DNA from: an uncultured Bacilli bacterium
GTDB taxonomy: Bacteria; Bacillota_I; Bacilli_A; RF39; UBA660
Length of the DNA stretch: 64,000 nucleotides
Direction: 5' to 3'
NCBI GenBank assembly: GCA_934096125.1
Contig: CAKOLB010000004.1
Span: forward strand, 55,117 to 119,116
The notes under the pieces are model-generated. The model saw nothing but the letters and a program-made list of their open reading frames with translations. It was not told the origin of the DNA and searched no databases. Within the stretch, counting starts at the first letter, position 1, and the number at the start of each line of letters is the position of its first letter. Positions 42,346 through 63,133 of this stretch are shown piece after piece. The translations under genes and the position numbers were made by a program.

Positions 42346-42373
42346 TTGCATATTAAAAAAAAGGGGGAATTAT

Positions 42374-46103: not shown

Positions 46104-46361
46104 TGATGGAATATCATCAAATAGTTGTCTGATGTCTATTCCTAAAGCATCAGCAAATTTACCTATGGTTTCTAATGTTGGAGTTTTATCAATGCTTAAG
46201 CATTCTAAATCTCGAACATATCCATGAGTCAGTTCAGTTAAATCAGCTAATTCTTGAAGTGTATAACCACGTATAAGTCTGTATTTTCGAATGTTTTTTC
46301 TAACTTGAATAGATAAAATTGTTTTTGAATATCTTCTCATAGAAGTTATACACCTCCTCAC
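46086..46361 (-). CDS. XRE-family HTH transcriptional regulator
   Basis: HTH region LIRGYTLQELADLTELTHGYVRDLE. 91 aa. Confidence 0.75.
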   Translation of the reverse strand: MRRCITSMRRYSKTILSIQVRKNIRKYRLIRGYTLQELADLTELTHGYVRDLECLSIDKTPTLETIGKFADALGIDIRQLFDDIPSEKTDN

Positions 46362-46448
46362 ATTTAAATTATTTCATAAAAATTTTAAAAAATATGTCGC
46401 CTGACAGAAGTTTTTGTGATATAATTAAAATGAAAGGAGACTGCTTTT

Positions 46449-46925
46449 ATGAAGAAATGCAAATATTGTCAAACTGAAATTGACTCAAAAGCAAAAATTT
46501 GCCCAAACTGTAAAAAGAAACAAGGTAAACCAAAATGGTTAATAGCTTTAATTGTTATTATTGTAATAATGATTATTGCATCTGTTGCTGGAGGTAACGA
46601 AGAGAATGCTAAGGAAGGAAATGTTTCAAACGGAGGTAATAAGCCAACAGAAAAATTTACTTATGAAGTAACAAAACAATATGCAGATGAATATGGTATG
46701 TCTTATTATATAGAAGGTAGTGTAAAAAATAATAAGGATAAAGATTATTCATATGTTCAAATTGAATTTGTTTGCTATGATGCAGAAGGCAATAACCTTG
46801 GAACTGCTATTGATAATACAAATAATTTACTAGGAAATCAGACTTGGAAATTTAAAGCAATGGCTATGTTTAGTGATGCTGAAACTGTTGATCATTGCGA
46901 TTATCATGAAATAACAAGCTGGTAA
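46449..46925 (+). CDS. zinc-ribbon / TM / FxLYD-like domain protein
   Basis: CKYC...CPNC ribbon, one TM, and an extracellular beta-rich domain with IEFVCYDAEGNNLG (FxLYD-like). Confidence 0.45.
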   Translation: MKKCKYCQTEIDSKAKICPNCKKKQGKPKWLIALIVIIVIMIIASVAGGNEENAKEGNVSNGGNKPTEKFTYEVTKQYADEYGMSYYIEGSVKNNKDKDYSYVQIEFVCYDAEGNNLGTAIDNTNNLLGNQTWKFKAMAMFSDAETVDHCDYHEITSW

Positions 46926-47035
46926 AATAGTTGGAAGTCTTTTTAAGACTTCTTTTTGTTAGATTTTTTTACCAAAATAGTCGTTTTATATTTGTTTTAT
47001 GTTATAATAATATTTAATGAAAAAAGGGTGGTTTT

Positions 47036-47335
47036 ATGTATCAATTATTGAGTTTATTCAGTTTTCTTATTAGGGCATATTTGTGTTATTGCACAATAGA
47101 TAATATTCCAATATTAGCTAATCCGATATTAAATAGTATTTTAGGGGAAGTAATATCCTTATATACTATTTTGTGGGCAATAAGTTATTTTGTTGTTGGA
47201 AGATTTTATGATAAAGGTTCTGAACCCTTGTTAGGTGTTATTTTATATTTTATTGTATATGTTGTAATTCTGGGAATTACATATTTATTGTTGTTATTAT
47301 TAACATATATTGGAGTTTTACCAATAGTTATATAA
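47036..47335 (+). CDS. small hypothetical membrane protein
   Basis: 99 aa with three hydrophobic segments. No family recognised. Confidence 0.4.
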   Translation: MYQLLSLFSFLIRAYLCYCTIDNIPILANPILNSILGEVISLYTILWAISYFVVGRFYDKGSEPLLGVILYFIVYVVILGITYLLLLLLTYIGVLPIVI

Positions 47336-47364
47336 ATAAAAAAACTTATCGTTGTGATAAGTTT

Positions 47365-47904
47365 TTATAGGTTTATTCTATCATCAGGTAATTTTGAGTA
47401 ATCATATTTTTCAGCACACATTTCTAAATCTTCGTAAATAGAGGTTAATTGTGCTAATATTTTTTCGGGTGGAAGTAATTCTTTATAATAATCATAATCT
47501 TTAAGTAAAAGCATCATTTGGAATATTCTTGTTCTGCAATCAGCAACTTTAGTTCTTTTCTCATAAGAATCTTCTAATAAATCCAATTGAGATTCTCTAT
47601 ATTGTTTTACTAATTCCTTTATATTTTTAGGAGTTTTATGTTTTGAAGTGTCTTTGAAACTATCTAGAATATCACTATAACCAGCAGTAGTTAAAAGAAA
47701 TTCTAAACTTATTTCTAATACTTCAGATAAACTTCTTAACATATCTATATCTGGTTTTTTAATATTACCTTTTTCAAGTTCATTATATGTAGAGTGATGT
47801 GTATTGATTAAACGAGCTACTTTTCTTTGAGAGTAGCCTTTTTTTGTTCTAGCAGTCCTTAATATTTTACTTAATTCTTCAAGATTAGCATTATTATTTT
47901 CCAT
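47365..47904 (-). CDS. XRE-family HTH regulator with C-terminal extension (element repressor candidate)
   Basis: HTH region KKGYSQRKVARLINTHHSTYNELEKGN. Divergent from the HTH_36-like ORF across an operator-bearing intergenic region. Confidence 0.7.
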   Translation of the reverse strand: MENNNANLEELSKILRTARTKKGYSQRKVARLINTHHSTYNELEKGNIKKPDIDMLRSLSEVLEISLEFLLTTAGYSDILDSFKDTSKHKTPKNIKELVKQYRESQLDLLEDSYEKRTKVADCRTRIFQMMLLLKDYDYYKELLPPEKILAQLTSIYEDLEMCAEKYDYSKLPDDRINL

Positions 47905-47971
47905 TTAAACCACCTCTAAAATGCTTTCTTCCAATAACATAATACCATAACGAAAATTAAAAAGCAATAAT

Positions 47972-48037
47972 TTTGTCGGTTATTCTTGACAAAATTATAA
48001 TTACAATGTATATTATAGTTGTCGGGCAATCTTGACA
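47972..48037. promoter_or_regulatory. two copies of a 20-bp operator-like site overlapping -35 elements
   Basis: TTGTCGGTTATTCTTGACAA (47972-47991) and TTGTCGGGCAATCTTGACAA (48018-48037). Each is a TTGTC...GACAA inverted repeat containing TTGACA. The first TTGACA has a 17-nt spacer to TATATT. Confidence 0.5.
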
Positions 48038-48134
48038 AAAAAGGGGGATAGTAATAAAGTAGATTGCTAATGCGACTAATGTTCTTTGAAAATTTACACA
48101 AGTCTTTAAAGGTTAATTAAAAGGGGGTGATAGC

Positions 48135-48638
48135 ATAACAGAATCTATAAAAGATGGGTTTTGGATTATACCTGCAAAAGTAGGTATAGATGATGCACTC
48201 ACATTACAAGATAAATTACTATATGCTCAAATCTTATCATTAACAAGACAAGATGGATTCTGTTTTGCTACTAATTCTTATCTATCTAATTTAAATAATG
48301 TTACTCCAAAAACAATTTCTAACAGTATTTCTAATCTTAAAAAAAATAATTATATACGAGTTGAATATCACAAGGAAAAAATAAATAAAGATAAAAGAAA
48401 AATATTTGTAACTGATAAGGGGGTATGGAAAACAAATCCTGGGGATATAGAAAAAAATGTTAATACCGGTATGGAAGATAATTTCCAATATAATAATATA
48501 AAGAATAAAAAGATAAAAAAATATAATACCAATAATAATGTTCCTTGGTGGCTAGATAAAGAAATTAAAGAAAATCCTGCATCTCTAGAAGAACAAGCAG
48601 AGATGGAAGCACTACTAAGCGAATTTAAAAAAGATTGA
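48135..48638 (+). CDS. HTH_36-type winged-helix protein (plasmid/ICE replication- or regulation-associated), no canonical start codon
   Basis: The frame is open from 48117 to TGA 48636-48638 and encodes ...WIIPAKVGIDDALTLQDKLLYAQILSLTRQDGFCFATNSYLSNLNNVTPKTISNSISNLKKNNYIRVEY. The strong SD AAGGGGG (48121-48127) lies 7 nt before ATA 48135. The first in-frame ATG/GTG/TTG is not until about 48470. Confidence 0.55.
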   Translation: MTESIKDGFWIIPAKVGIDDALTLQDKLLYAQILSLTRQDGFCFATNSYLSNLNNVTPKTISNSISNLKKNNYIRVEYHKEKINKDKRKIFVTDKGVWKTNPGDIEKNVNTGMEDNFQYNNIKNKKIKKYNTNNNVPWWLDKEIKENPASLEEQAEMEALLSEFKKD

Positions 48639-48714
48639 AAAGGAGTTGGTTTTATAAATAAATACAAGACTAAATCATAAAATTTAATAAAAAGGAAAAG
48701 GGGGAATTATAAGA

Positions 48715-48846
48715 ATGGAGGTAGTACTTAAGGCAAAACACACATTTAAAACTGATATATCAAACGAAGAATTATTTAGAGATAGATTTAACGAGATATT
48801 GTTAAAAGTTATATTGCATCTTGAGCAAAATTACCAAAGTAGTTAA
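48715..48846 (+). CDS. small ORF (43 aa) immediately upstream of recombinase 1
   Basis: ATG 48715 preceded by AAAAGGGGG. Encodes MEVVLKAKHTFKTDISNEELFRDRFNEILLKVILHLEQNYQSS. Too short to appear in the track. Confidence 0.35.
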   Translation: MEVVLKAKHTFKTDISNEELFRDRFNEILLKVILHLEQNYQSS

Positions 48847-48937
48847 AAAAATTATAAATAACTATCAAAAAGGGGTATAATATAAGTTGTAGTCGATTTA
48901 GTTCTGATAGTTATACACAGAATTGGAGGATATAACT

Positions 48938-50533
48938 ATGAGACTAAGAGTTGGTATTTATGGGAGGTTATCACAAGAGGATATAGATAAGATAAACAAA
49001 GAAGATGAAAGTGAAAGTATCCAAAATCAAAAAAGAATGTTATTAGAGTATGCTTTAAAAAATGATTGGGATGTAGTTGATATTTATATTGATGAAGATT
49101 ATTCAGGTGCTGGAGTTTATAGACCAGAGTTTGAGAGAATGCTAAAAGATTGTGAAAATGGAAAACTAGATATAGTTTTATGTAAGAGTCAATCAAGATT
49201 CTCGAGAGATATGGAAATAATTGAAAGATATATAAATAACAAATTTAAAGAATGGAATGTTAGATTTATTAGTTTAGTAGATAATATAGATACTGATAAT
49301 AAATCTAATAAGAAATCTATTCAAATATTAGGACTAACTAATGAATGGTATTTAGAAGATTTATCAGATAACATTAAAAGAACAATTAGGAATAAAAAAG
49401 AGTCTGGACAATTTACTGGTTCATTTGCTCCCTATGGTTATTTAAGAAGTGAAGAAGATAAACACAAATTAGTTATTGATCCTATTGCTTCAATCATTGT
49501 TAAAAAGATATTTGAAATGTATAAACAAGGTAATGGTTATACTAAAATAGCAACTTATTTGAATGATACTAATGTTCCTAGTCCTTATGAACACAAAAAA
49601 GCAAGTGGTAGTAAATTTGTATGTGGAAATGTTGGAAAGGAAAAATCATATTGGTATTCAGATACAATTGCTAAAATCTTAAAAGATGAAGTATATATTG
49701 GAAATCTAGTACAAGGAAAAACAAGGCATATAAGTTATAAAAATAAAAAATCAGTTCCTGTTCCTAAAGAAGATTGGATAATTGTTAAAAACACACACGA
49801 ACCTATAATAGATGAAGATACTTGGAATATAGTTTCTGCTAAATTTAAAGGTAGGACAAAGCCAAGTAAATCTGGGGAAATTCATATGTTTACTAAAAAG
49901 GTTTATTGTGATTGTTGCAAAAAAATATTTTATAATGGTTATTCTAAATCAGGAAATGGGAACAAGCATTATTATTTAACTTGTAAGTCTAGAAAATCAG
50001 GGGTGTTTTGTGAAAATAATCTATCTATTAGAGTAGATAAATTAAAAGACTTTATCCTTAATGAGATTAATGAATATATCAAAGTTTATCATAATTCTAA
50101 AGCTTTAAATGAGAAATACCAAAAATTAAATACTAAGAATAATAAAAATGAGATTCAAGAACAAATTAAAACTTTGGAAAAACAACAAACTGAATTAGAA
50201 AAATCACAAAGTAAAAAGAATTCTTATTTAAGAAAATTATATGAAGATAGAATAGAGGGTTTCATTACTGATGAGCAATACAAAGCTTTTAGTAAAGACT
50301 ATGATGATGAATTAAATGAATTGCAAAACAGAATTCAATTAATAAAAGATGAAATCACTCTCTTAAATCAAAGGCACAGTGATATGATTGATAGAGATAA
50401 AATATTTAATAAATATAAATCTATAAAGGAATTAGATAGAAGTATATTAGATGATTTTATAGAAAAAATATATATCGGTGCAGTAGATAAAGAAACGAAT
50501 GAACGAGAAATAAATATTGTATGGGCCATATAA
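48938..50533 (+). CDS. large serine recombinase (resolvase domain, recombinase domain, zinc ribbon, coiled coil)
   Basis: VGIYGRLSQED catalytic-Ser motif, SIQNQ, YIDEDYSG, and SRFSRD. Cys cluster CDCC...C...C. C-terminal coiled coil with FIEKIYIG...REINIVW (DUF4368-like). Start at ATG 48938 behind GGAGG. Confidence 0.9.
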   Translation: MRLRVGIYGRLSQEDIDKINKEDESESIQNQKRMLLEYALKNDWDVVDIYIDEDYSGAGVYRPEFERMLKDCENGKLDIVLCKSQSRFSRDMEIIERYINNKFKEWNVRFISLVDNIDTDNKSNKKSIQILGLTNEWYLEDLSDNIKRTIRNKKESGQFTGSFAPYGYLRSEEDKHKLVIDPIASIIVKKIFEMYKQGNGYTKIATYLNDTNVPSPYEHKKASGSKFVCGNVGKEKSYWYSDTIAKILKDEVYIGNLVQGKTRHISYKNKKSVPVPKEDWIIVKNTHEPIIDEDTWNIVSAKFKGRTKPSKSGEIHMFTKKVYCDCCKKIFYNGYSKSGNGNKHYYLTCKSRKSGVFCENNLSIRVDKLKDFILNEINEYIKVYHNSKALNEKYQKLNTKNNKNEIQEQIKTLEKQQTELEKSQSKKNSYLRKLYEDRIEGFITDEQYKAFSKDYDDELNELQNRIQLIKDEITLLNQRHSDMIDRDKIFNKYKSIKELDRSILDDFIEKIYIGAVDKETNEREINIVWAI

Positions 50534-50550
50534 TTTAGTCCATACAGGAC

Positions 50551-50580
50551 TTGTGTAGAATAAACATAACCTCCACATGG
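50551..50580. repeat. attR of element 1 (P arm TTGTGTAGAATAA plus core ACATGG)
   Basis: Lies 18-47 nt after the recombinase stop. The arm is the inverted repeat of 42257-42269, and the core is identical to 42242-42247. Confidence 0.7.
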
Positions 50581-50806
50581 TGGTGATGATCCGGGGACTA
50601 TTGCAAATGGAATAACTGAAAAAGATTATACTTTGAAGATAACAAATTATATTCACAACAGATTAGATGAACTTGGAGTGCCAAATAAATTATCGAGGAG
50701 TACTGATGAGACTTTAGATGCCAGTAGTAGGCCACAGAGAATACAAAGTCTTTATGGAAATGGGAGTGATGTGATTGTTGTGTCTAATCACATAAATGCA
50801 GGGGGA
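50581..50806 (+). pseudogene. split Amidase_3-LysM hydrolase gene, segment 2 of 3
   Basis: Continues in frame from segment 1: (G)GDDPGTIANGITEKDYTLKITNYIHNRLDELGVPNKLSRSTDETLDASSRPQRIQSLYGNGSDVIVVSNHINAGG. It then diverges and stops at TAA 50816-50818. Confidence 0.8.
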
Positions 50807-50828
50807 CAGGACGCGTAATATGTGGTTA
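50785..50828. repeat. attL of element 2 (B arm TAATCACATA, core GGA, P' arm TATGTGGTTA)
   Basis: TAATCACATA at 50785-50794, GGA at 50804-50806, and TATGTGGTTA at 50819-50828. The last is the inverted form of TAACCACATA. Confidence 0.6.
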
Positions 50829-50928
50829 ATCGTAGGCGCAGTGTATAACTTTAATAAGCTTCTTATTTTACTGTATATGATGGTATAATAGATATATCAA
50901 ATAACTTTAAAGATGAGAGGTGAAAAGA

Positions 50929-51840
50929 ATGTTATATATAACTGGTGATACTCATGGAGATTTTTATAGATTTGGTCATTTAGGATTAAATGAAGGTGAT
51001 ATTATGATTATCTTAGGGGATGTGGGTATTAATTATTACTTAGATGAATATGATAAAAAGTTAAAGGAAAGATTAAAAAGATATAATTTTAAATTTTTCT
51101 GTATTCAAGGTAATCATGAAAAAAGACCAGAAAATATTTCAAGTTACCACGAAGTGGAAATGTTTGGCGGTAAAGTATTTGTAGAAGATGAATATCCTAA
51201 TTTAGTATTTGCTAAAAATGGAGAACTTTATAATATTGATGACAAAAGTATTTTAGTAATAGGTGGAGCTTATTCTATTGATAAAGATTATAGAATAAGT
51301 AAAGGATATCCTTGGTTCAAAGATGAACAATTAACTGAGAAAGAGAGACTAAATATATTGGACGAGTATTCTGGTAAACATGTGGATATAATTTTATCTC
51401 ATACTTGTCCATTAAGATATGAACCTAAAGAAAGCTTTAAATTAAGTTTGCCACAGATTGCGATAGATAAATCTATGGAGTATTTTCTAAATGAAGTAGA
51501 GCAAAGAGTAGATTATGGTAAATGGTATTGTGGACATTATCATTTAGAAAAAATTGTGGACAAGTTAGAGTTTATGTTTGGAAGAATTAAAAGTGTTGAC
51601 ACAGGAGAATTTATTCCTAAATATGATTTCCATAATGGCTACAAAATAGTTAGAGATGTATGTAGTCAAAAAGATTATAAATATTGTCCTGAATGTAAAG
51701 GAGATAATATAATTATAGAAAAAGGTGAAGGACATAATATTAATGGTTTAGATTTTATTGCTATCATTTGTAATGATTGTAAAAAAGTTTATGGATTTAA
51801 TGATGTTAATTATAAACGTAATTGTCCTAAAGAATTGTAA
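50929..51840 (+). CDS. calcineurin-like metallophosphoesterase with C-terminal zinc ribbon
   Basis: GDTHGD, GDVG, and QGNHE motifs, plus SHTCP. C-terminal CPECKG...CNDCKK. Confidence 0.7.
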   Translation: MLYITGDTHGDFYRFGHLGLNEGDIMIILGDVGINYYLDEYDKKLKERLKRYNFKFFCIQGNHEKRPENISSYHEVEMFGGKVFVEDEYPNLVFAKNGELYNIDDKSILVIGGAYSIDKDYRISKGYPWFKDEQLTEKERLNILDEYSGKHVDIILSHTCPLRYEPKESFKLSLPQIAIDKSMEYFLNEVEQRVDYGKWYCGHYHLEKIVDKLEFMFGRIKSVDTGEFIPKYDFHNGYKIVRDVCSQKDYKYCPECKGDNIIIEKGEGHNINGLDFIAIICNDCKKVYGFNDVNYKRNCPKEL

Positions 51841-51914
51841 CTGTGTTTACCAAATTTTAAAATTTATGCTATAATTAAGATGTAATAATTATTTGACTAA
51901 GTGTGGTGAGTAGT

Positions 51915-52550
51915 ATGGAGTATAGAAAATATTCATTTAGACATGCAGAAGATATTTTTAAAAACGATAAGGATTTTACTTATTTATGGAATGAAATTTT
52001 GGAAGTGCTTGATAGTATAAGCGATGATGATTTAATTAATGAATTTAACATTGAAACTAGAAAAGCAAAAAGCATTTCCGAAGCAATTAATAAATTAATT
52101 GCAAAAAGGCTAAGTGAAAAAGGATGGCATGAACAAAGTTACATTTTTGCTGACCCTGATTATTCTGATAATAAAGGTACATGGAGATTAGATTTTGCAA
52201 AAGATAATATTGCAATTGAAGTTGCATTTAATCATGGAGGAAATGTATCTTGGAATTTAATTAAGCCAGTATTATCTAGTGAATTAAATCATGTTAAAAA
52301 GGCAATACAAACTCAAGCTGGCGTTGTCATAACAGCAACTGATGCTATGAAAAAAGCCGGTGGATTTGATAATGCTATCGGTACCTATGAAAAATATGTT
52401 GAATATCTAAAACCATTAAATAATTTGTTAACCACACCTATGATGATAATAGGATTAGAACCACCAAAAAAGTTTACTATTGAGCAGAAAAAAGAAGATG
52501 GTAAAATGGTTGGACATGTTAAATTAAAAGAAGAAGATAATAACTTTTAG
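51915..52550 (+). CDS. BglII/BstYI-fold restriction endonuclease-like protein (orphan)
   Basis: WRLDFAKDNIAIEVAFNH...SSELNH...GVVITAT...TYEKY...MMIIGL parallels the BglII core DIDFGKRDTLVEVQFSN...SELFH...IIITK...LVGL as I recall it. The D-x8-E spacing is kept, but the E-V-Q glutamine position is Ala. Confidence 0.55.
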   Translation: MEYRKYSFRHAEDIFKNDKDFTYLWNEILEVLDSISDDDLINEFNIETRKAKSISEAINKLIAKRLSEKGWHEQSYIFADPDYSDNKGTWRLDFAKDNIAIEVAFNHGGNVSWNLIKPVLSSELNHVKKAIQTQAGVVITATDAMKKAGGFDNAIGTYEKYVEYLKPLNNLLTTPMMIIGLEPPKKFTIEQKKEDGKMVGHVKLKEEDNNF

Positions 52551-52601
52551 ACTTACAATTTTGTGAGTCTTTTTATTTTGAAAAAGAAAGGATACGATAT
52601 T

Positions 52602-52895
52602 ATGAAAATAAAAACAAATAGAGAAGAGGGTTATGTAGTTATGGGTAACTATCATCTAAGAGATAAAAAATTAAGCTTAAAAGCAAAAGGACTATTATCT
52701 ATAATGTTGTCATTACCAGACACATGGTGTTATTCCACGCTAGGATTATCTAGTATTTGTGTTGAAAGCAGGGATACAGTTAGAAATATATTAAAAGAAT
52801 TAAAGGAAGCAAAATATTTAAAGGTAGTTGAAAATAGAGATGAAAATGGTAGATTTAATTATGAATATGTAATTTATGAAAAACCCTATATGTAA
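52602..52895 (+). CDS. HTH_36-type winged-helix protein
   Basis: LSLKAKGLLSIMLSLPDTWCYSTLGLSSICVESRDTVRNILKELKEAKYLKV. Same family pattern as the ORF at 48135. Start set to ATG 52602. Confidence 0.55.
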   Translation: MKIKTNREEGYVVMGNYHLRDKKLSLKAKGLLSIMLSLPDTWCYSTLGLSSICVESRDTVRNILKELKEAKYLKVVENRDENGRFNYEYVIYEKPYM

Positions 52896-53069
52896 TAATC
52901 CATGGTATCATTACGGTTACATGGATTTCCGTATGCGGTTATTTATTCACAATAAATTATTTAGAAGTAATTAATAAAACAAATAGATAAAGTCGATAAA
53001 ACCTCTATCGATTCAAAAAAAGAGAAGGTTTTATAGTATAATTTCTCTTTTCATTGGTTAATTTAGCTA

Positions 53070-54467
53070 TTAAATAAATTCTTTTAATATATTTTCTAAG
53101 TATTTACTATTTAACCAAAAACAATGCTTTGTATATTCAGCTAATCCTGTTAACTTGTCTTTTACAGGTAATGGCAAAGTATCTTTTGAGTCTCTAGCAT
53201 GTGGTCTAACATGGCAAACTCCATTATCCCCGATTCCTGGAAAGTTAGTATTTCTTTTACCCATATTATCAATTGATTTAATAATATTTCCAGATAAAAT
53301 AATGTTTTTTGTATTATTCCACATATTTTTCACTTCATTTTCAAGTGTTAGTTCTGGCATGTTCCATAATTTTATACCACTAAAGATATAATCATTATCT
53401 TTCTTTTTAAATATAAAGAACATGTATTTTGTAGTTTCTAATTCTTCTTTTAACTTTGATTCTTCCCAATCAGTTGTTTTAAAATCCATATAATTGAAAT
53501 ATGGAAAAGGCATAGATTCTTTAATGTGTCCATTTTCTTCAACTCTGATTGTTCTTGGAACTATATTTGCTTTTTGGAATTCATCAGTATCACGAAGTCT
53601 AGATTTAACATTAAACATTCTAGCTATCAGTATTCCATTTAAATTTTTTGCATTAGAATCAATATTAAATTCATGCATTAATTGTTTTTGAGTTTTCCCC
53701 TGATATTTCTTGGTAACATTTTCAACAAATTCAGTAAATGATTCACCAGCATTTTTAATAACTTTTTCAACATCTTCATAATTTCCAATATATTTTCTAA
53801 CGAGTCCTGTCATATAAGAAGTTTTTAAACAAAATGCTCTTTGCTTTGCTTTAATTGATGAAAAAGGTTGTTCTCTAACGGATTTTTTATTTGCTCCTTT
53901 TGTACAAGCACCAAGATACATTGTATCTGCTTCTGATATCTCATGGGCTTTTCCTTGTTTAATTTTATTAATTATTGTTTCCCAATCCTTAATAATTATT
54001 GGTAAATCTTCTTTTGGAAATGTAAATAATAACTCGTGTGTTATTCTTAAATCATTTTTATTTTTGTGAGGTTCGTAAAAATACCAAATTATTTGAATTT
54101 TATTATTTTTAAACCAAAAATGACTAGAGTAAAATTCATTTTTATATTCATCCATATAATTAATTATGTTTAGAACAAGTCTTTCTTTAGCTGATAAAGT
54201 ATTGTCTTTGTTTTTCTTATACGGTGTAACTTTAAGTTCTATTCCCGCATCAATAAAGTCAGGCGCAGATATTGAATTAATGTTGTATCCATATACATTA
54301 GTTTCAAATAAATGACCAAAGAAAGCTTTATTAAACTTTTCATCATCTTTGTTATATTCATTGTTATAAATAGTTGTTACATTCATATTATTTAATTCTT
54401 TAAAAGTTTTTCCTAATGCACTTTTAGCTAAAATTTGAATTTCATCTTTTGTGTAACTTTTTGCCAT
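53070..54467 (-). CDS. MutH/Sau3AI-family type II restriction endonuclease
   Basis: N-terminal MutH-like core APDFIDAGIELKVTP (D...E-x-K). The size fits the two-domain Sau3AI type. Divergently paired with a C5 methyltransferase. Confidence 0.7.
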   Translation of the reverse strand: MAKSYTKDEIQILAKSALGKTFKELNNMNVTTIYNNEYNKDDEKFNKAFFGHLFETNVYGYNINSISAPDFIDAGIELKVTPYKKNKDNTLSAKERLVLNIINYMDEYKNEFYSSHFWFKNNKIQIIWYFYEPHKNKNDLRITHELLFTFPKEDLPIIIKDWETIINKIKQGKAHEISEADTMYLGACTKGANKKSVREQPFSSIKAKQRAFCLKTSYMTGLVRKYIGNYEDVEKVIKNAGESFTEFVENVTKKYQGKTQKQLMHEFNIDSNAKNLNGILIARMFNVKSRLRDTDEFQKANIVPRTIRVEENGHIKESMPFPYFNYMDFKTTDWEESKLKEELETTKYMFFIFKKKDNDYIFSGIKLWNMPELTLENEVKNMWNNTKNIILSGNIIKSIDNMGKRNTNFPGIGDNGVCHVRPHARDSKDTLPLPVKDKLTGLAEYTKHCFWLNSKYLENILKEFI

Positions 54468-54636
54468 AAAAATTTCCTTTCGATCTTGTTTTTATCTCAA
54501 AAATAATTTAAAATATATATATAGTGTTGATCTTTTTAAAATATTATTTTATAATTAATATGTAAGAAGTTGATCTTTTCGCTTAAATATATTATAATAT
54601 ATTTAAATATGTTTAACAATTATTAGGAGGCGTTTT

Positions 54637-55875
54637 ATGCAAAAAACAGTAGTAGAATTATTTGCCGGTGTTGGTGGATTTAGATGTGGATTAAATAATG
54701 TAAAATTAAAAGATAATAAAGTTATTGAAAAAGGTAATTGGAATTTTGTGTGGGCGAATCAATGGGAACCTTCTACTAAAACACAAGAGGCTTTTGAATG
54801 CTATTCAAAAAGATTTGGAAAGGATGATGTTAGTAATGTAGATATATTTCAAGTAAATAAAAAAGAGATACCTAATCATACTTTATTAGTTGGTGGTTTT
54901 CCATGTCAAGATTATTCTGTTGCACAGACACTATCTAATAGCAAAGGAATTGATGGAAAAAAAGGTGTTTTGTGGTGGGCAATTGCAGATATATTAAAAG
55001 TTAAGAAACCTCCATTTGTGTTTTTAGAAAATGTTGATCGCTTACTTCTTTCGCCAGCGAGTCAAAGAGGCAGAGATTTTGGAATAATTTTGAGAAGTTT
55101 TTATGAAAATGGATATGATTTAGAATGGCGAGTTATCAATGCGGGAGAATATGGATTTCAACAAAAACGTAGGAGAATTTATATAATTGCATATCACAAA
55201 TCAACTAAATATTGTAAGAAAATGAGAAAAATTGATAAGAAAAATATATTACTTAAGGAAGGTATTTTCATAAAACAGTTTCCTGTAAAAGAGAAAGAGT
55301 TTAACTCAAATGTATCAAGTATTTCAGAATATAAAGATTTAGTCGATGTTAGTGATAATTTTAAAAACCAATTTTATAATTCTGGAGTTATGATAAATGG
55401 TGAAATATATACTGCCAAATTAGAACATAATTGCGATAGTGTATATCAGTTAGGCAATTTAATAGAAACTAATAAGGTTGATGAAAAATATTTCCTTTCA
55501 AAAGATAGAATTGAGAAATTTAGAATATTAAAGGGAAGTAAAAGAATACCTAGAAAAAAGCCAAATGGAGATGATTACATTTATTCTGAAGGTTCAATGC
55601 CATTTCCTGATAATCTAAATGTTCCTGCTAGAACAATGCTGACTTCAGAAAGTGGAACTAGCAGAATGACACATGTTATAGAGGACTATAGAACTAAAAA
55701 ATTAAGATTTTTAACACCATTAGAGTGTGAAAGAATTAATGGATTTCCAGATAATTGGACAAATACTGGGATGAGTGATAAGAAACGATATTTCATGATG
55801 GGTAACGCTTTAGTAGTAAATGTTGTTGAAAAAATAGGGATTGAATTGGAAAAAATAGTAGAAATGGAAGAGTAA
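54637..55875 (+). CDS. DNA (cytosine-5)-methyltransferase, Sau3AI-type (GATC specificity inferred)
   Basis: Motif I ELFAGVGGF, motif IV GGFPCQDYS, motif VI LENVDRLL, motif VIII QQKRRRIYIIA, and motif X GNALVV. WANQWEPS and SPASQRGRDF resemble M.Sau3AI-like enzymes. Confidence 0.85.
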   Translation: MQKTVVELFAGVGGFRCGLNNVKLKDNKVIEKGNWNFVWANQWEPSTKTQEAFECYSKRFGKDDVSNVDIFQVNKKEIPNHTLLVGGFPCQDYSVAQTLSNSKGIDGKKGVLWWAIADILKVKKPPFVFLENVDRLLLSPASQRGRDFGIILRSFYENGYDLEWRVINAGEYGFQQKRRRIYIIAYHKSTKYCKKMRKIDKKNILLKEGIFIKQFPVKEKEFNSNVSSISEYKDLVDVSDNFKNQFYNSGVMINGEIYTAKLEHNCDSVYQLGNLIETNKVDEKYFLSKDRIEKFRILKGSKRIPRKKPNGDDYIYSEGSMPFPDNLNVPARTMLTSESGTSRMTHVIEDYRTKKLRFLTPLECERINGFPDNWTNTGMSDKKRYFMMGNALVVNVVEKIGIELEKIVEMEE

Positions 55876-55984
55876 ATGAAAAAATGTTAAAATTTGGTAA
55901 TTTATCTAAATAGTGTTATAATTTTATACAGAAGATATGCAGTATTTGTCTTTTTAAGATGGATACTGCATTTTTTTGAAGTAG

Positions 55985-56950
55985 GTGGTAGTATTGGATT
56001 CACTTAATTATGAAGTTTTTAAAAAAATAAAGAAATATTATAATGATAATTGCAAACCTTTAATTTTTGTTGGAGAAAAATTATTATCGCAGAATAACAA
56101 ATGTAAAATGTATTTTTGTGATGTTGATTTAAATCAAGAAAAAGAAAATTATAGAAAAGTTTTTCAAGAATATTTGGCACTTTATGTTAGAAATCATGAT
56201 TTGCTAAAATATTATGATAAGATTATAAAAAGTGAAACAGAAGATGAAATTTCAGAAGCTTTAATTTATTATGGAAATGATTTGTGGAATAATACCGTAT
56301 TGATAACTACAACTACACCAGAGACTTTAGGGATATATGGAGAAGCCATTAATGATTTTTATTTAAATATTGTTAAGAATGAAAATATAATTATCACTTA
56401 TTCAGCAAAAAGGGGGTATGGTGAACGTAATATAAAAGGGGTAGATGTAGTTGCATGTACTTGGAAAAAAGATAATCTTGTACTAATATTTTCTGAGTGT
56501 AAATTTGTCGAATCAATATATAAGGCGTCGTGTGGTTTATATAATGATATAAAGGGAACTCAATATGAATTGGCACATATAAGTAAAGATTATATAAACG
56601 GATATTCTACTTATATTGTTGATAATGCTCATTCAATTTTTGCAGAGAGTAATAATTCAGATAAAATTATAGATGTTTTGGACAAATTGAATAGTAGGAT
56701 AATAAATGGAAACAAGGCGATAGATGTGTTTAATGAATTAAACATAAAAATTCAATTTAATTTCTTTGCAATTTACTGTGATAATAAATTTACACCAGAT
56801 GAAAGACAAATAATGTTTGAAAAAGTATATAATGCTTTTTATGAAAATGTAAAATTAACAGGTATTAAAAATTATGATATGGAAATTGTGTATATACCTA
56901 TTAAAAATACAAGCTCTGTGGTAAAGGAATGTATGAGACAATGGAATTGA
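55985..56950 (+). CDS. HamA-like (DUF1837-type) PD-(D/E)xK nuclease candidate, first gene of a Hachiman-like pair
   Basis: 321 aa, with GVDVVACTWKKDNLVLIFSECKF giving a D...E-x-K arrangement. Overlaps the downstream helicase gene by 22 nt. Confidence 0.5.
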   Translation: MVVLDSLNYEVFKKIKKYYNDNCKPLIFVGEKLLSQNNKCKMYFCDVDLNQEKENYRKVFQEYLALYVRNHDLLKYYDKIIKSETEDEISEALIYYGNDLWNNTVLITTTTPETLGIYGEAINDFYLNIVKNENIIITYSAKRGYGERNIKGVDVVACTWKKDNLVLIFSECKFVESIYKASCGLYNDIKGTQYELAHISKDYINGYSTYIVDNAHSIFAESNNSDKIIDVLDKLNSRIINGNKAIDVFNELNIKIQFNFFAIYCDNKFTPDERQIMFEKVYNAFYENVKLTGIKNYDMEIVYIPIKNTSSVVKECMRQWN

Positions 56951-59322
56951 CACGAAATACAATTGTAAAGAAAATAAATTTATTTTCAATGGAAAGGAAT
57001 AATAAAGAATTAATAAATCTACTATGTGATATTTTAGAAAGTAAAAATTACATGGATAATTATGATCTTATTTTAATTATAATAAATATTGCCGAACTTT
57101 ATGGTTATCAAGAATTTTTTAATAATTTTGATGCAAATAGTATACCTAAATATAACGTGCATGCAATATCTAATGATATTAGAAAAAATCTATATAAAAG
57201 CAAAAAAGGTAATAATATATATTATAATTCTGGACAATTATCTTTATTAAAAGAATTATCACTATATGATAAGCTTTTTATATCAGCTCCCACGTCATTT
57301 GGTAAAACCAGTTTAGTTTTAGAGCATATAGCAATGAATAACTCAATATATAAAACTATTATTTTTTTAGCTCCAACTAATGCATTAGTAGAAGAATTGT
57401 ATCTAAAATTTTTAAAATTAAATAAAGAATGTAATTTAAATTATGATGTAATAACAATGCCAAAAAATAAAAATAATAATACAATATGGATATTAACACC
57501 AGAGAAATTTTTACTTTTGGTTGAAGAAAAAAGTATAGATTTTGATTTGATAGTTATGGATGAGGCTTATAAAATTGAAAATGAAGAATCAATTGATAGA
57601 AAAGATATTTTAAATTCTAGGTCAAGCAAATATAGGAAAGTAATGGAATATATGGCTAATTCTAATTCGAAGATTATATTTTTATCTCCATATACTTATA
57701 ATAAGGCGCCATCTATGACAAGATTCTTAAAAAAATATAGTATCAAGGATATTGACAGGAATATTAATTATGTAAAAAAAGACATAATAGATATTTATGA
57801 TAGCAAAAGTTATAAAAGTAATTTTTCCAATAGTATATTTAGTATTAAAAAAGGTGATTCTGGGATTAAAAAAGCAATGGCAGCTGTTCCCTATTTATCT
57901 GATAATACAATTATATATGTAAAATATCCAAGTGAGGCAATAAAAGTTTTAGAATTAATGCCTAATGAAAAAGCAAGTATAGATAATGAAAGATTTAAAA
58001 AATTTTTGAACCATTTAAAAGAAAATTATTTATTTGAAGACAGCAATTGGTATATTATAGATGCTCTAGAAAAGGGAATTGGCATATATGTATCACCTAT
58101 TCCTCGATATATAAAAAAAGAAATAATATATTTATTTAATAAGGGAATAATAAAAAAACTTATAGTTACAACTGCATTTGCTGAAGGAGTTAATAGTTCA
58201 GCTAAGAACATAATTATAACAAATAGAATAACAGGATCTAATAAAAAACTAACTAATTTGGATATATTGAATTTAAGTGGTAGAGCAGGCAGATTTGGTG
58301 TATATAGCAAAGGAAAAGTTTTTTCTGCAGTTGAAGAAGTAAGTGATATTTTAAGAAAATCATCTGAAAATGGAGTAATTATAAATAATCCTAATTACGA
58401 ATTAGCAAGTGATATTATACCTAGAACTGATTATGAAATCGATATGATAGATGATTATCTATTAAATGAAGAAGAAAAAAATATAAAGGAAACCACAAAA
58501 AAAAGGCAATTAAATTTTAATTTGACCAACGATGATTTAAATATAGCTTTATCAATTGCAAATGAAATAAAAATCGATGTATATTCATATTTTTTTGAAA
58601 CAATTAACAATGGAAAAATTCAAGATATAAGATTTAATAATATTAAAAATTTATTGTCTACAGAGAAAAATGATATTATAAAATCAATTACATTTATTTT
58701 TAACGAATTAAAAAATGCAGATATTCCAATAGTTTCAGATTTTGGTGATATTAATCCATTTAATAGTAAAGGTGATTTTATTTGGGGCATTTTTTACGGA
58801 ATCCACTCTTCAGGAAATATTAGAGATGTTTTGAAATCAAGAAAAGGCTTTATTTTAAAACAGTTAAGTGAAATTGAAAAAATATTAAATTTAAAACTTA
58901 AAAATTTTAATAATAAAGAAATAGAAAAAATATTACGTGAGTACGATAAAAAATGGATATACGATTATTTAACTAAAGGTGAAATTGATGATGCAAAACT
59001 ATATAATGGTGCATTTAAATTTATATCAAACATAATTGAATATAGAATACCATTTTATATTGGATTGTATATATCAGTTTTTAAAATGTTTTGTAGAAAG
59101 AATAATTTAAATTATGATTTTAATTTTGATATTGTTGAAATATCTACATCATTAGAAAATAAAAATATAGAAAAAAAGTATTCTGATATGTTGGAATTTG
59201 GCATACCATTAGATACAATCAAAAAGATAAATAAATTTAAAAATGATAATAATATTTTTGAAATATTAGATGATTATGAAAAAATTATGTTAAGTGAATA
59301 TAATTACTATTTTGATAAATAA
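56929..59322 (+). CDS. HamB-like SF2 (Ski2/Hel308-like) helicase
   Basis: Motif I SAPTSFGKTS, Ia LAPTNALVEE, II VMDEAYK, V TTAFAEGVN, and VI LSGRAGRFG. 797 aa with a long C-terminal domain. Confidence 0.6.
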   Translation: MYETMELTRNTIVKKINLFSMERNNKELINLLCDILESKNYMDNYDLILIIINIAELYGYQEFFNNFDANSIPKYNVHAISNDIRKNLYKSKKGNNIYYNSGQLSLLKELSLYDKLFISAPTSFGKTSLVLEHIAMNNSIYKTIIFLAPTNALVEELYLKFLKLNKECNLNYDVITMPKNKNNNTIWILTPEKFLLLVEEKSIDFDLIVMDEAYKIENEESIDRKDILNSRSSKYRKVMEYMANSNSKIIFLSPYTYNKAPSMTRFLKKYSIKDIDRNINYVKKDIIDIYDSKSYKSNFSNSIFSIKKGDSGIKKAMAAVPYLSDNTIIYVKYPSEAIKVLELMPNEKASIDNERFKKFLNHLKENYLFEDSNWYIIDALEKGIGIYVSPIPRYIKKEIIYLFNKGIIKKLIVTTAFAEGVNSSAKNIIITNRITGSNKKLTNLDILNLSGRAGRFGVYSKGKVFSAVEEVSDILRKSSENGVIINNPNYELASDIIPRTDYEIDMIDDYLLNEEEKNIKETTKKRQLNFNLTNDDLNIALSIANEIKIDVYSYFFETINNGKIQDIRFNNIKNLLSTEKNDIIKSITFIFNELKNADIPIVSDFGDINPFNSKGDFIWGIFYGIHSSGNIRDVLKSRKGFILKQLSEIEKILNLKLKNFNNKEIEKILREYDKKWIYDYLTKGEIDDAKLYNGAFKFISNIIEYRIPFYIGLYISVFKMFCRKNNLNYDFNFDIVEISTSLENKNIEKKYSDMLEFGIPLDTIKKINKFKNDNNIFEILDDYEKIMLSEYNYYFDK

Positions 59323-59333
59323 AATCATGTCCG

Positions 59334-59362
59334 TTGACTGTCCTATAAATTTATGGTAAAAT
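59334..59362 (+). promoter_or_regulatory. near-consensus sigma-A promoter in the hamB-to-59637 intergenic region
   Basis: TTGACT (59334-59339), 17-nt spacer ending in TGG, then TAAAAT (59357-59362). Confidence 0.5.
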
Positions 59363-59636
59363 GGTAATATAGGATAAGTGTAAGAGATGCAAATTTATGA
59401 GAGGATTTTCCCTCTTTTTTTGTGTCTTTAAAAAAAATTATCTTTTTGAAAGAAAGGTAAATTTTATCTAAAATATTCTAAACTGTCGGAGACTATTAGT
59501 GGGTTTTAGGGATATTCCCTAACAAGCTAGATGGGTGTGTATACACCATGCTTGATATATTATATTACACGGGTATGTAACCTCAAAATAGGATTTAATG
59601 GTAATCTGAAATGTGGTATGAAATGAAAGGAGAAAT

Positions 59637-60209
59637 ATGGAATTTAAGTCAATGGAGAAGTGGCGTGTTTTACAGAAGTTTAAAATTAGCGAAAAACAGT
59701 ATAAGAGATTAGTGAAAAGATTAAAAAGAAGACATCCTAATGAAAGATGGATTGATGAACATTTTGCTCAAAATGGTGAAAGAGTAGTATATCTAAAATT
59801 AGAATTTGTAGAATGGATAGAAGAAGTTTATTTAAATAACAATCTATTTTATTTAGATGCTGAAATTGTTTTCTTTAAAAAGCAAATATTAAGACTAGAA
59901 GATGAATTAAATTTTCCTCATAGTGGGTTTGAATATGAAGATATATCTTTAAAAGATTTAAGGGAGTATTTTAATAAGAGTAAAGATGTGATAGGTGTTG
60001 CAATAAATAGAATGGAAAAGAGAAATGATAAATCATTCAAGTATATAAAAGATGCTAAAGTTATGATTAATAAAGAAGGCGTTAAATGGTTAAGTGAAAA
60101 CTATTTCCGTAAAGATTATTTAAAAAAGTTAGAATTTTATAAATTAGAACTTCAAAATGTTAAGAGAAAAAGAAATAGATTAAAAGAATATAGTATTTTC
60201 TATTACTAA
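59637..60209 (+). CDS. hypothetical basic protein (190 aa), element-encoded
   Basis: GGAG RBS before the ATG. K/R-rich N-terminus (KQYKRLVKRLKRRHPNERW) and a K/R-rich C-terminal tail. No family recognised. Confidence 0.5.
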   Translation: MEFKSMEKWRVLQKFKISEKQYKRLVKRLKRRHPNERWIDEHFAQNGERVVYLKLEFVEWIEEVYLNNNLFYLDAEIVFFKKQILRLEDELNFPHSGFEYEDISLKDLREYFNKSKDVIGVAINRMEKRNDKSFKYIKDAKVMINKEGVKWLSENYFRKDYLKKLEFYKLELQNVKRKRNRLKEYSIFYY

Positions 60210-60312
60210 CTAGATTAGTTTGGAATATAACTAATTTTTTTATGTCCTAATTTTGATAATAAAGTCTTATAGTTGTTCTTATTTCATAAAATGAAAGGAG
60301 AGGTGTAGATTA

Positions 60313-60405
60313 GTGAATATAACTGAAACTTTCGATAAAGATAAAAACTTGGTTGAATTAATAGAGGAGTATTTAAAATTGATGTTAGAAAATAGTAAGC
60401 AATAA
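60313..60405 (+). CDS. small ORF (30 aa) immediately upstream of recombinase 2
   Basis: GTG 60313 lies 10 nt after GGAGAGG. Encodes VNITETFDKDKNLVELIEEYLKLMLENSKQ. Same position relative to the recombinase as ORF 48715. Confidence 0.3.
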   Translation: MNITETFDKDKNLVELIEEYLKLMLENSKQ

Positions 60406-60463
60406 GAGTTTGTGATATAATGATATTGCTTATTGAAGTTATACACGTTGGAAGGAGTAGTAA

Positions 60464-62089
60464 GTGTATAACAATGTAATACAAGCACCAAGTTTTTATA
60501 GAGTAGGTATATATATCAGATTATCAGAAAGTGATGAAGATAAAACTTATGAGTCAGAGAGTGAAAGTATAATCAATCAAAGAAATTTATTAATGGATTA
60601 TGTAAAAATGAGTGGATTTACTTTGGTTGATGAGTATGTAGATGATGGATTTACAGGAACTAACTTTGATAGGCCTTCTTTTCAAAGATTATTAAAAGAT
60701 ATTGAAAGTGGTCGAATCAATTGTGTAATCACAAAAGACTTATCAAGATTAGGTAGAGATTATATTCAATGTGGATATTATGTAGAACAATATTTTCCAC
60801 AAAAGAAAATTAGATATATTTCTATACTAGATCAAGTTGATACATTTCTAGAAAGTGCTAATAATGACATTGCTCCATTTAAAGCTTTGTTTAATGATAT
60901 GACTAGTAAGGATACTTCTAAGAAGATTCGTTCAATATTAAAAAATAAAAAAGAACAGGGTAAATTTATTGGAAGCAAACCATGTTATGGATATATGAGA
61001 GATCCACTTGATAAAGGACATTTAATACCCAATCCAGAAGTTGCTCCTGTTGTTAAAAGGATATTTAAAATGGCTCATTCTGGAACTGGAGTAAGTGATA
61101 TAGTATCATACTTAAATGATAATAAGATATTAAGCCCTAGTATGTATAAAAATACTAAATCATCTTCAAGACAAAAAGTGAATGTATGGACAATATCCTC
61201 AGTCAACAAATTACTAAAAAATAGAATGTATACAGGAGATATGGTACAAAATGTTCAAACTAAGTTAAGTTATAAATCTCAGAAGAAAGTTGCTTTAGAA
61301 AAAGAGTTTTGGATAATAGTTGAAAATACTCATGAACCTCTTGTTAGTAAAACAGTATTTGAAGCAATACAAAATGCTCCTGCTAGAGTAAGGACAACCC
61401 ATTGTAATAGAGAAAAAAGATTATTAGAAAATCTTCTTGTTTGCAAAGAATGTGGAAACTCTTTAAGCGTTCTTTATAGAAAAAATAAAAATTATAAGGG
61501 TGGAAAGTATTGGAGTGTTAATTGCAATAAATATGCAAGAGATCCAAGAAGACATTTGTGCTATCCACACTTCTTTCCTTATGATAAACTAGAAGAAAAA
61601 ATAATGAGTGTTATTAAAACTACTTGTCAAAAATATTTAGATAGTTTAAATATCAAAGAATTATCTGAAAGAGTATTACAAGATAGAGCAAAGGAAAAGA
61701 ATGATAGGCAAAAGGAAAAGCAACAATTATTAAATGAGATTGATGAATTAAAAAGAAAATCTGATGCTTTATATGATGACAAATTTAATGGAATAATAAG
61801 TGTTGATACTTATACAAGAATCTCTGCACAAACTGAAAAACAAATATCAGCCTTAAATTATAGAATTTATGAAATAGATAATGAAGAAAATCAGATTAAA
61901 GAAGATACAAAAGAAATAACTAAATATGAAGAACAAATAAAATCACTTTTAAATTTAGATGAACCCAACAGAGAACTCATAAAAACTTTAGTAAAAAAAA
62001 TTTATATAGATAAAGATAGAAATATAGAAATTCAATATAGATTTAAGGTGCTAGATGATATAAAAACTAATTATGAAGAAATAAATTAA
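60464..62089 (+). CDS. large serine recombinase (second, distinct copy)
   Basis: VGIYIRLSESDED catalytic-Ser motif, SIINQ, YVDDGFTG, and LSRLGRD. Zinc ribbon CKECG...C...C. C-terminal coiled coil with LVKKIYID...IEIQYRF. Confidence 0.9.
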   Translation: MYNNVIQAPSFYRVGIYIRLSESDEDKTYESESESIINQRNLLMDYVKMSGFTLVDEYVDDGFTGTNFDRPSFQRLLKDIESGRINCVITKDLSRLGRDYIQCGYYVEQYFPQKKIRYISILDQVDTFLESANNDIAPFKALFNDMTSKDTSKKIRSILKNKKEQGKFIGSKPCYGYMRDPLDKGHLIPNPEVAPVVKRIFKMAHSGTGVSDIVSYLNDNKILSPSMYKNTKSSSRQKVNVWTISSVNKLLKNRMYTGDMVQNVQTKLSYKSQKKVALEKEFWIIVENTHEPLVSKTVFEAIQNAPARVRTTHCNREKRLLENLLVCKECGNSLSVLYRKNKNYKGGKYWSVNCNKYARDPRRHLCYPHFFPYDKLEEKIMSVIKTTCQKYLDSLNIKELSERVLQDRAKEKNDRQKEKQQLLNEIDELKRKSDALYDDKFNGIISVDTYTRISAQTEKQISALNYRIYEIDNEENQIKEDTKEITKYEEQIKSLLNLDEPNRELIKTLVKKIYIDKDRNIEIQYRFKVLDDIKTNYEEIN

Positions 62090-62195
62090 ATAATAAAAAT
62101 AGGGTGGTAAAATTTGGTAATCACACAATCTTACCATCCCCTATACTATTTTTAGAAAAAATAAAAACGCAGTAAAATCAAGAAAAATGATAGCC

Positions 62196-62218
62196 TAATC
62201 ACATAAAATCTTTCCGGA
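62196..62218. repeat. attR of element 2 (P arm TAATCACATA plus core GGA)
   Basis: TAATCACATA at 62196-62205 and GGA at 62216-62218. About 107-129 nt after the recombinase stop. Confidence 0.6.
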
Positions 62219-63133
62219 GGTGGCGATGGTGCAGAAGTAATATATGCTCTTAGAAATAATGATGTATTTGCAAGTAAAATTGCAAGAGAACTAGAGAGTG
62301 CAGGACAAAATATTAGAAAATATTATCAGAGAAGACTTCCAAGTAATCCAGCGAAAGATTATTATTATATAATGCGAGATACTCCTAATAATGAAACTGT
62401 AATTGTAGAGTATGGGTTTGCAGATTCTACTGGTGATGATGTTGAGCAGTTAAAAAATACTTGGGAAAACTTAGCAGAAGCGGTGGTTAAAGCAATTACT
62501 GAGTATGCTGGCGGTACTTATACACTTCCAAATACGGGCAATTATTACATAGTTAAAAGTGGTGATAGTCTATGGAGCATATCCAAAAAAACAGATGTTT
62601 CTATTGCCAAGATTAAGGAACTTAATAATCTTAAGAGTAATTTGTTAAGTATTGGTCAGAAATTAACATTACCACAAACAAGTGAAGATACCCCATCGCT
62701 AGATACATATATTGTTCAAAAAGGCGATAGTTTATATAAAATCGCTAACAAGTTTAATACTACTGTTGATAACTTAAAACTTATTAACAATCTTCAAAGC
62801 AATAATTTAGCTATAGGTCAAAAATTAAAGGTAAGTAGTAGTGAAAACAAATACACAGTGCAAAAAGGTGATACACTATACAGCATTGCCACTAAATTTT
62901 CTGTTAGTGTAGATTCATTAAAAAACGCTAATAATTTAGTTAGTAACACAATTGCCGTTGGTCAATCCTTAATTATCCCAGAACAAAAAACAACTAAAAC
63001 TTATACGGTTCAAAAAGGCGATAATCTTTATAGCATAGCAAGGCGATATAATACGACTGTAAATACAATAATGTCTTTAAATAATCTAGCTTCAACTAAT
63101 TTAACTATCGGTCAAAAGCTACTTGTTCCGTAA
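62219..63133 (+). pseudogene. split Amidase_3-LysM hydrolase gene, segment 3 of 3 (end of the Amidase_3 domain plus four LysM repeats)
   Basis: The frame of ORF 62372..63133 is open upstream to 62216 and reads GGGDGAEVIYALRNNDVFASKIARELESAGQ...YYYIMRDT...VEYGFADS. Four Y-x-V-x-x-GD-(S/T/N)-L-(Y/W)-x-I-(A/S) LysM units follow. Confidence 0.8.
62543..63130 (+). repeat. four tandem LysM domain-coding repeats
   Basis: YYIVKSGDSLWSISKK..., TYIVQKGDSLYKIANK..., KYTVQKGDTLYSIATK..., TYTVQKGDNLYSIARR..., each ending in IGQKL or VGQSL. Confidence 0.85.

Follow-up and report, generated by a model that had tools for sequence, protein, structure and literature searches.

Which defense system, if any, is encoded by two overlapping genes in an uncultured Bacilli bacterium? 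The genes lie in the window, that is, the whole stretch of 64,000 nucleotides (nt) taken from contig CAKOLB010000004.1. Both open reading frames (ORFs) are on the plus strand, one at 55985-56950 (321 amino acids (aa) from GTG) and one at 56929-59322 (797 aa). A first-pass annotation had proposed that they form a Hachiman-like HamA-HamB module, with the reservation that the subtype may be divergent or the nuclease-helicase system a different one. The ORFs have the sizes and coordinates claimed there, and all of the quoted peptide strings are found in the two translations. We conclude, with a probability of about 0.92, that HamA, a DUF1837 PD-(D/E)xK nuclease, and HamB, a superfamily 2 (SF2) helicase, make up a complete, translationally coupled two-gene Hachiman system of type I. 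The Hachiman call is borne out by profile, structure and synteny, and the overlapping pair is genuine but ordinary, an already known kind of system. Gene structure, family membership, fold, the conserved catalytic and ATPase residues and the hamA-hamB coupling were all observed in this analysis.

HamB is an intact Ski2-like helicase of the Hachiman family

HamB is easily detected. It matched the PADLOC HamB1 profile with an E-value of 8.9e-71, HamB models accounted for 19 of its 21 PADLOC matches, and the family match is far above chance. The HamB1 match begins at residue 10 of HamB, and the alignment with the HamB of E. coli K-12 (AbpB) begins at K-12 residue 41; hhalign comparison with AbpB gave 99.6% over 621 columns. 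The Pfam domains DEAD, ResIII and Helicase_C were found in the protein. Its top sequence match in the PDB was 8zue_B (1.2e-25, or 1.6e-36 with the family profile), and both proteins of the pair are structurally nearest to those of K-12. The architecture is of the short form, consisting of an N-terminal helical domain, RecA1, RecA2 and a C-terminal helical region, with Walker A near residue 125. All the motifs that had been listed for a Ski2-like helicase are present and invariant across the HamB clade, indicating an intact SF2 helicase of this type. By analogy, the N-terminal helical domain is expected to be the NAH/TPR-like module that binds HamA, as HamB's N-terminal domain does in other systems (PMC11914072, PMC12278908).

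Neither of the features that had suggested a divergent subtype or a distinct system sets this helicase apart. DEAY in motif II is ruled out as the mark of a new subtype: DExYK is invariant in the clade, and motif II varies among HamBs, reading VIDEFYK at the aligned position of K-12 HamB and DEGH in ECOR31 HamB (PMC12278908). Also ruled out is a novel fusion at the C-terminus. The 3' part of hamB has a GC content of 19.7%, compared to 25.5% for the mobile element that carries it and 28.5% for the window; this AT-rich third encodes many invariant residues, its alignment with K-12 HamB extends as far as residue 759 of 793, and it corresponds by homology to the helical region at the C-terminus of that protein.

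It should be mentioned separately that the second-best PDB sequence match to the HamB clade profile was 9wh1_B, a chain of 853 aa that bears the name 'DNA polymerase theta (Helicase domain only)' in its deposition. It matched from the Q-motif to past motif VI (E 1.4e-23) and outscored ECOR31 HamB.

HamA belongs to the DUF1837 family and has a complete active site

HamA was assigned through its family. Of its 37 close homologues, which share 43-90% identity over 97% or more of the length, 17 match Pfam HamA/PF08878. A profile search of 1.84 billion representatives showed a small and sharply bounded clade of 77 clusters, and PF08878 was matched by 21 of the 28 full-length clade members (best E 4.2e-28). 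The family carries DUF1837 (PF08878), and the first protein of the pair belongs to it, as originally suspected. The match of HamA itself to the PADLOC HamA1 profile, at 18.6 bits (E 2.3e-4), spans almost all of the protein and almost all of the profile.

The catalytic residues were read from two alignments of clade homologues (A1 and A4). In 321-aa numbering, G116, G119, E120, D154 and K173 are invariant in columns down to 19% identity, and E171 is conserved in at least 90%. In the HamA model, E120 lies on helix 117-130, D154 is at the start of strand 155-161 and E171/K173 are on strand 164-175. This is the canonical E...D...ExK arrangement, with the acidic residue on a helix, the Asp and the ExK on the next strand that a PD-(D/E)xK nuclease acting as sole effector should have. 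E120 is the counterpart of the essential acidic E93 in Streptococcus thermophilus HamA, with an identical 34-residue gap to the Asp (PMC13064477). The equivalents of the ExK residues are essential in ECOR31 (E138/K140; PMC12278908), in DEC14B (E150/K152; PMC11914072) and in S. thermophilus (E147/K149; PMC13064477).

PADLOC profiles place the pair in type I (HamA1/HamB1), and there is no third Ham gene. Type II Hachiman consists of HamA2 and HamB2 in PADLOC terms plus a third gene. In our searches, the top three PADLOC matches of the helicase were HamB1 models, the best HamB2 model reached 1.3e-54, and HamA matched HamA1 only. The possibility that a 190-aa ORF downstream of hamB is a third Ham gene was dismissed, as the ORF has no family match and travels with the recombinase of the mobile element, not with hamAB. 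Nor is the pair of the AbpAB type (HamA types I-B, I-C and I-D of Cui et al.), which has an extra N-terminal effector domain, such as a Cap4 nuclease or a peptidase, and a degenerate DUF1837: HamA has 318 aa and an intact ExK, and Pfam, PADLOC, NCBIfam and PHROGs showed no domain in it besides HamA. As it lacks an extra domain and its active site is intact, the HamA scheme of Cui et al. makes it 'type I-A'.

hamA and hamB form a conserved overlapping operon

The true start of hamA is most likely TTG 55994 (318 aa) rather than GTG 55985 (321 aa), because GGTGG lies 5 nt upstream of it, the homologues are 314-321 aa long, the homologous start codon in the related locus L005 is ATG, and gene callers gave 318 aa on near-identical metagenome contigs. 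For hamB, ATG 56941 (793 aa) is the probable start, since it matches P0039, the copies in L004 and L027, and the 8-10 nt overlaps seen in homologous loci. The overlap of 22 nt reported in the first-pass annotation is correct for ATG 56929; the probable start gives 10 nt instead.

The same gene order with a short overlap recurs in 16 related loci. hamA is followed directly by hamB on the same strand, with an overlap of 8-10 nt, in L001, L002, L004-L014, L017-L019, L021 and L027. Near-identical, intact hamAB copies were found in independent metagenomes (L004, L027), with one residue difference per protein. In most related loci with readable flanks, hamAB adjoins a restriction-modification (R-M) system of some type. 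No match to the module was found in plasmid and phage collections with blastn.

Proposed mode of action

A mechanism can be proposed by homology with the E. coli and S. thermophilus systems (PMC12278908, PMC11914072, PMC13064477), from which complex formation, the DNA-damage trigger, the nuclease activity and the abortive outcome are taken over. HamA and HamB would form a 1:1 HamAB heterodimer through the N-terminal helical domain of HamB, as suggested by the structures 8ZUE and 8VX9 (PMC11914072, PMC12278908). In this complex, HamB would restrain HamA while intact double-stranded DNA is scanned. Phage infection would give rise to damaged DNA or 3' single-stranded ends, and single-stranded DNA would then enter the helicase site of HamB. 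ATP binding and hydrolysis would activate HamA, which would degrade phage and host DNA indiscriminately, so that the infection is aborted.

Leader hairpin and a co-occurring metallophosphoesterase gene

Upstream of hamA, the leader (55914-55993) contains, in this order, an extended -10 box (TGTTATAAT), 14-16 nt, a 16-bp hairpin, a T7 run and the ribosome-binding site (RBS). The promoter-like site to which the -10 box belongs (Table 1) is the putative hamAB promoter, judging from its sequence; an extended -10 box is present at the same distance 5' of the hairpin in L005, L001, L011 and L012, despite different upstream genes. The hairpin RNA folds with -22.8 kcal/mol (z -5.4). Between the window and L005, hairpin and RBS are approximately 100% conserved at a HamA identity of only 70%, and farther upstream the sequence has diverged. 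The stem is shared by L001, L011 and L012, and other stems occupy the same place in L006, L007 and L014; four loci (L008-L010 and L013) have no leader hairpin. An Rfam search of the leader gave chance hairpin matches only and no family. Attenuator, operator and 5' stabilizer are possible roles of the hairpin, which may also simply be the terminator of the methylase gene upstream.

The same mobile element encodes, 4 kb upstream of hamA (50920-51840), a metallophosphoesterase of 306 aa whose C-terminal tail is Cys-rich and Zn-ribbon-like. Homologues with 64-66% identity were found in L001 (9247-10164), L011 (13244-14161) and L012 (3800-4717), where the gene lies approximately 16-31 nt downstream of hamB. 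In the comparison with these three loci, the metallophosphoesterase is more conserved than HamA and HamB (48-51%). The gene may have an accessory function or may simply travel along as cargo.

These two features raise the question of whether the system is a regulated or extended variant, in which the hairpin, as attenuator or operator, sets hamAB expression and the metallophosphoesterase serves as a third component. The conservation of hairpin and RBS, the recurrence of stems, and the position of the metallophosphoesterase gene close to hamB in three loci and on the same element in the window would fit such a variant, as would the reports that Hachiman is mildly toxic and that PezAT represses the Streptococcus system (PMC12278908, PMC13064477). 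We nevertheless consider it unlikely. The hairpin of the window could be a plain terminator, and the four loci mentioned above do without one. The metallophosphoesterase gene is not beside hamAB in L009, L010, L014, L017, L019 and L021, and in the window an R-M system lies in between. The only PADLOC match of the enzyme is weak (PDC-S10, 8e-4), and its association with hamAB may come from a pool of cargo that mobile elements share.

Evidence against the Hachiman assignment

The points that weigh against an active Hachiman system come from decayed relatives, from negative searches with HamA and from the distance to the characterized systems. In L020 (4046-4844), hamA is broken into fragments of 141 aa and 103 aa upstream of an intact hamB. 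In L015 (10001-10586), hamA stops at residue 154, and hamB and most of the 190-aa ORF are deleted; the recombinase of this element is 94% identical to that of the window and uses the same amidase target. Hachiman carriage is therefore not always maintained, and the copy in the window could be an inactive relic carried passively by its element. This is very unlikely: both ORFs in the window are full-length, every clade-invariant catalytic and ATPase residue is present, copies from independent samples are one residue apart per protein, and RBS, overlap and terminator are intact.

HamA itself gave no PF08878 match in Pfam even at E<=1, no match in NCBIfam or PHROGs, and only the 18.6 bits to PADLOC HamA1. 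A Foldseek search of the HamA model against the PDB yielded no match, and sequence and profile searches against PDB chains yielded chance matches only. In hhalign, the HamA clade profiles found nothing in K-12 AbpA, a result that we attribute to the degenerate DUF1837 of AbpA and to the single-sequence template. Finally, complex formation, trigger and protection are extrapolated to the clade by analogy from systems of Proteobacteria and Streptococcus, with HamA proteins of only about 10% identity. The first-pass annotation had left HamA unconfirmed by profile. A direct Pfam match is absent here too, which bears out that caution, but family membership, structure, catalytic residues and synteny outweigh the negative searches and settle the assignment; the negatives show that HamA diverges fast. 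That the pair merely resembles Hachiman, being a distinct nuclease-helicase defense system or a new subtype, finds some backing in the failed direct, Foldseek and AbpA searches and in the small, sharply bounded HamA clade, but is highly improbable and already largely refuted by the variation of motif II within Hachiman (DExYK in the clade, DEFY in K-12, DEGH in ECOR31) and by a HamB C-terminal domain that aligns with that of K-12.

hamAB is cargo of a serine-recombinase element in an amidase gene

The Hachiman genes are cargo of an element of approximately 11.4 kb (element 2, about 50808-62220), whose right boundary is marked by a large serine recombinase (all features in Table 1). Its boundaries are set by a split Amidase_3-LysM gene, between '...HINAGG' and 'GGDGAEVIY...'. 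This gene is split into three by element 2 and a second element (element 1, about 42250-50578), leaving pieces at approximately 42204-42251, 50573-50806 and 62218-63133. When rejoined, the pieces restore MNDRALKKVVLDAGHG/GDDPG...HINAGG/GDGAEVIY..., with slashes at the junctions. The same double-split layout was found in a distant metagenome-assembled genome (L011).

Apart from hamAB, the metallophosphoesterase and the recombinase, element 2 carries a Sau3AI-type R-M system, a BglII-family endonuclease, an HTH_36 protein and the 190-aa ORF. It had been described as a compact three-system defense island. The Sau3AI-type R-M system is solid and the BglII-family gene is real, but the latter has no methyltransferase of its own; a compact defense island is a fair description of the element. 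BglII and BstYI sites contain GATC. As a speculation, the Sau3AI-type (GATC) C5 methylase might protect against both endonucleases of element 2. The 190-aa ORF travels with the recombinase in L004 and L027, and as a fragment in L015, and not with hamAB elsewhere; it may be a recombination directionality factor or a regulator of the element. Element 1 has the look of a small mobilizable integrative element, and one of its cargo genes is possibly Abi-like.

Strains of the same species (L025-L032; identical flanking protein; region matching ~50.5-63.9 kb of the window) have alternative recombinase elements at the same amidase site. These carry Hachiman together with a type II R-M system in L027, an Eco57I-like type IIG enzyme in L025, L028, L029, L031 and L032, and a type I R-M system in L026 and L030. 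An empty, uninterrupted amidase site was not seen among the eight places shown for related strains. Related elements in other taxa hit the same target (L011, L015, L017/18). The host is an uncultured low-GC gut spore-former; it encodes Spo0A, and a gene for a SleB-like hydrolase is located nearby. On the basis of these sequences, the elements may be intervening elements of the skin type, excised in the course of sporulation. A more far-reaching scenario, in which hairpin and U-run, as attenuator or operator, would keep a self-toxic, DNA-clearing hamAB near-silent until it is needed, the Zn-ribbon metallophosphoesterase would cooperate and interchangeable elements carrying the module would permanently split the amidase gene of a spore-former, is unlikely in our view.

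Table 1. Features of the hamAB locus and of the two mobile elements in the window.
Feature	Position	Strand	Description
hamA	55994..56950	+	single-domain DUF1837/PD-(D/E)xK effector nuclease, 318 aa from TTG 55994 (most likely start); GGTGG RBS 55984-55988
HamA motif 1 GIYGE	56330..56344	+	G116, G119, E120 invariant (321-aa numbering); helix 117-130
HamA motif 2 GVDVV	56438..56452	+	aa 152-156, D154 invariant; starts strand 155-161
HamA motif 3 IFSECKF	56486..56506	+	aa 168-174, E171-x-K173; strand 164-175
hamB	56941..59322	+	SF2 Ski2/Hel308-like sensor helicase, 793 aa from ATG 56941 (probable start); alternative ATG 56929 = 797 aa
HamB N-terminal alpha-helical domain	56941..57210	+	~90 aa; helices 5-60 in model
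HamB Q-motif YYNSGQLSLL and motif I/Walker A SAPTSFGKTS	57220..57312	+	K126 (797-aa numbering); SAPTSFGKTS aa 119-128
HamB motif II/Walker B VMDEAYK	57553..57573	+	aa 209-215; D-E-x-Y-K clade-invariant
HamB RecA2 motifs V TTAFAEGVN and VI LSGRAGRFG	58168..58299	+	aa 414-422 and 449-457
HamB C-terminal alpha-helical region	58381..59319	+	~aa 480-793; GC 19.7%
Promoter-like site for hamAB	55894..55922	+	TTGGTA-17-TATAAT, TG-extended -10 TGTTATAAT at 55914-55922; consensus scan
Leader hairpin and T7 run	55937..55978	+	16-bp stem 55937-55971, between -10 box and hamA RBS; terminator scan
Terminator-like hairpin and T-run	59399..59424	+	hairpin 59399-59416; 77 nt 3' of hamB stop
BglII/BstYI-family endonuclease	51903-52550		element 2; PF09195 1.1e-11; weak BstYI match; no adjacent methyltransferase
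Sau3AI/MutH-type endonuclease and C5 methylase	53070-55875		element 2; PADLOC REase_II 3.2e-105, MTase_II 9.4e-166
190-aa ORF	59637-60209		between hamB and recombinase; no match in Pfam, NCBIfam, PADLOC, PHROGs
Large serine recombinase	60464-62089		right boundary of element 2
Mob_Pre relaxase	42374-43633		element 1
743-aa AAA_13 ATPase	43679-45910		element 1; weak PADLOC PDC-S06 and AbiLi-type matches
HTH/CapH-like regulator	47365-47904	-	element 1
Serine recombinase	48923-50533		element 1

Significance and comparison with known Hachiman systems

The value of these results is mainly one of annotation, namely that a locus of an uncultured gut spore-former with low GC is now correctly called as Hachiman; the current understanding of Hachiman function is unchanged. 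Only mildly unexpected are the poor detectability of HamA, the conserved leader, the recurrent but non-obligatory metallophosphoesterase and the always-occupied, doubly split amidase gene. For the HamA profiles of Pfam and PADLOC, the HamA clade is at their limit of detection or beneath it, and automated pipelines that ask for both genes may for that reason count too few Hachiman systems in genomes of this kind. A clade-specific HamA profile built from alignments A1 and A4 would fix this.

Archaeal Ski2-type DNA helicases of the Hel308/Hjm group have a role in DNA repair and possess neither a HamA-binding N-terminal domain nor a nuclease partner, in contrast to HamB. Within Hachiman, ECOR31 HamAB (PDB 8VX9/8VXY; Tuck et al. 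2024, PMC12278908) has a HamB of 1174 aa in which the N-terminus is longer, the C-terminal part includes an OB-like barrel and motif II reads DEGH, whereas the HamB of the window has 793 aa and DEAY, with no OB barrel in the model. Conversely, the HamA of the window is approximately 70 residues longer than that of ECOR31, mostly at the N-terminus. Like this HamA, the E. coli DEC14B 'type I-A' protein consists of DUF1837 only, with a conserved (D/E)xK (Cui et al. 2025); its nuclease activity needs HamB, and type I-A is the majority class, with 86% of 1781 HamA sequences (PMC11914072). The HamB of DEC14B has a long N-terminus (Walker A G272-T274) and that of the window is short, a distinction drawn from the description of the DEC14B system.

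The S. thermophilus system (type III-B, Tian et al. 2025, PMC13064477) is likewise from a Firmicute, and its E93, D127 and E147/K149 mirror E120, D154 and E171/K173 of the window. Its HamB is of the long form (Walker A K275), in contrast to the short HamB described here. It is controlled in trans by PezAT encoded upstream, and the level of Hachiman expression matters to the defense outcome (PMC13064477); the window has no toxin-antitoxin module but has the conserved leader hairpin.

The K-12 system AbpAB (YfjL-YfjK; PDB 8ZUE), 'type I-B' of Cui et al. 2025 (PMC11914072), resembles the pair of the window in the short architecture of its helicase. Its HamA is a protein of 538 aa with an N-terminal Cap4 nuclease domain and a dead DUF1837, compared to a single domain of 318 aa with intact E...D...ExK in the window, and the two show no detectable sequence similarity. 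A short, AbpB-like HamB next to a single-domain, intact HamA is the arrangement expected for an ancestor of the AbpAB form with its dead DUF1837.

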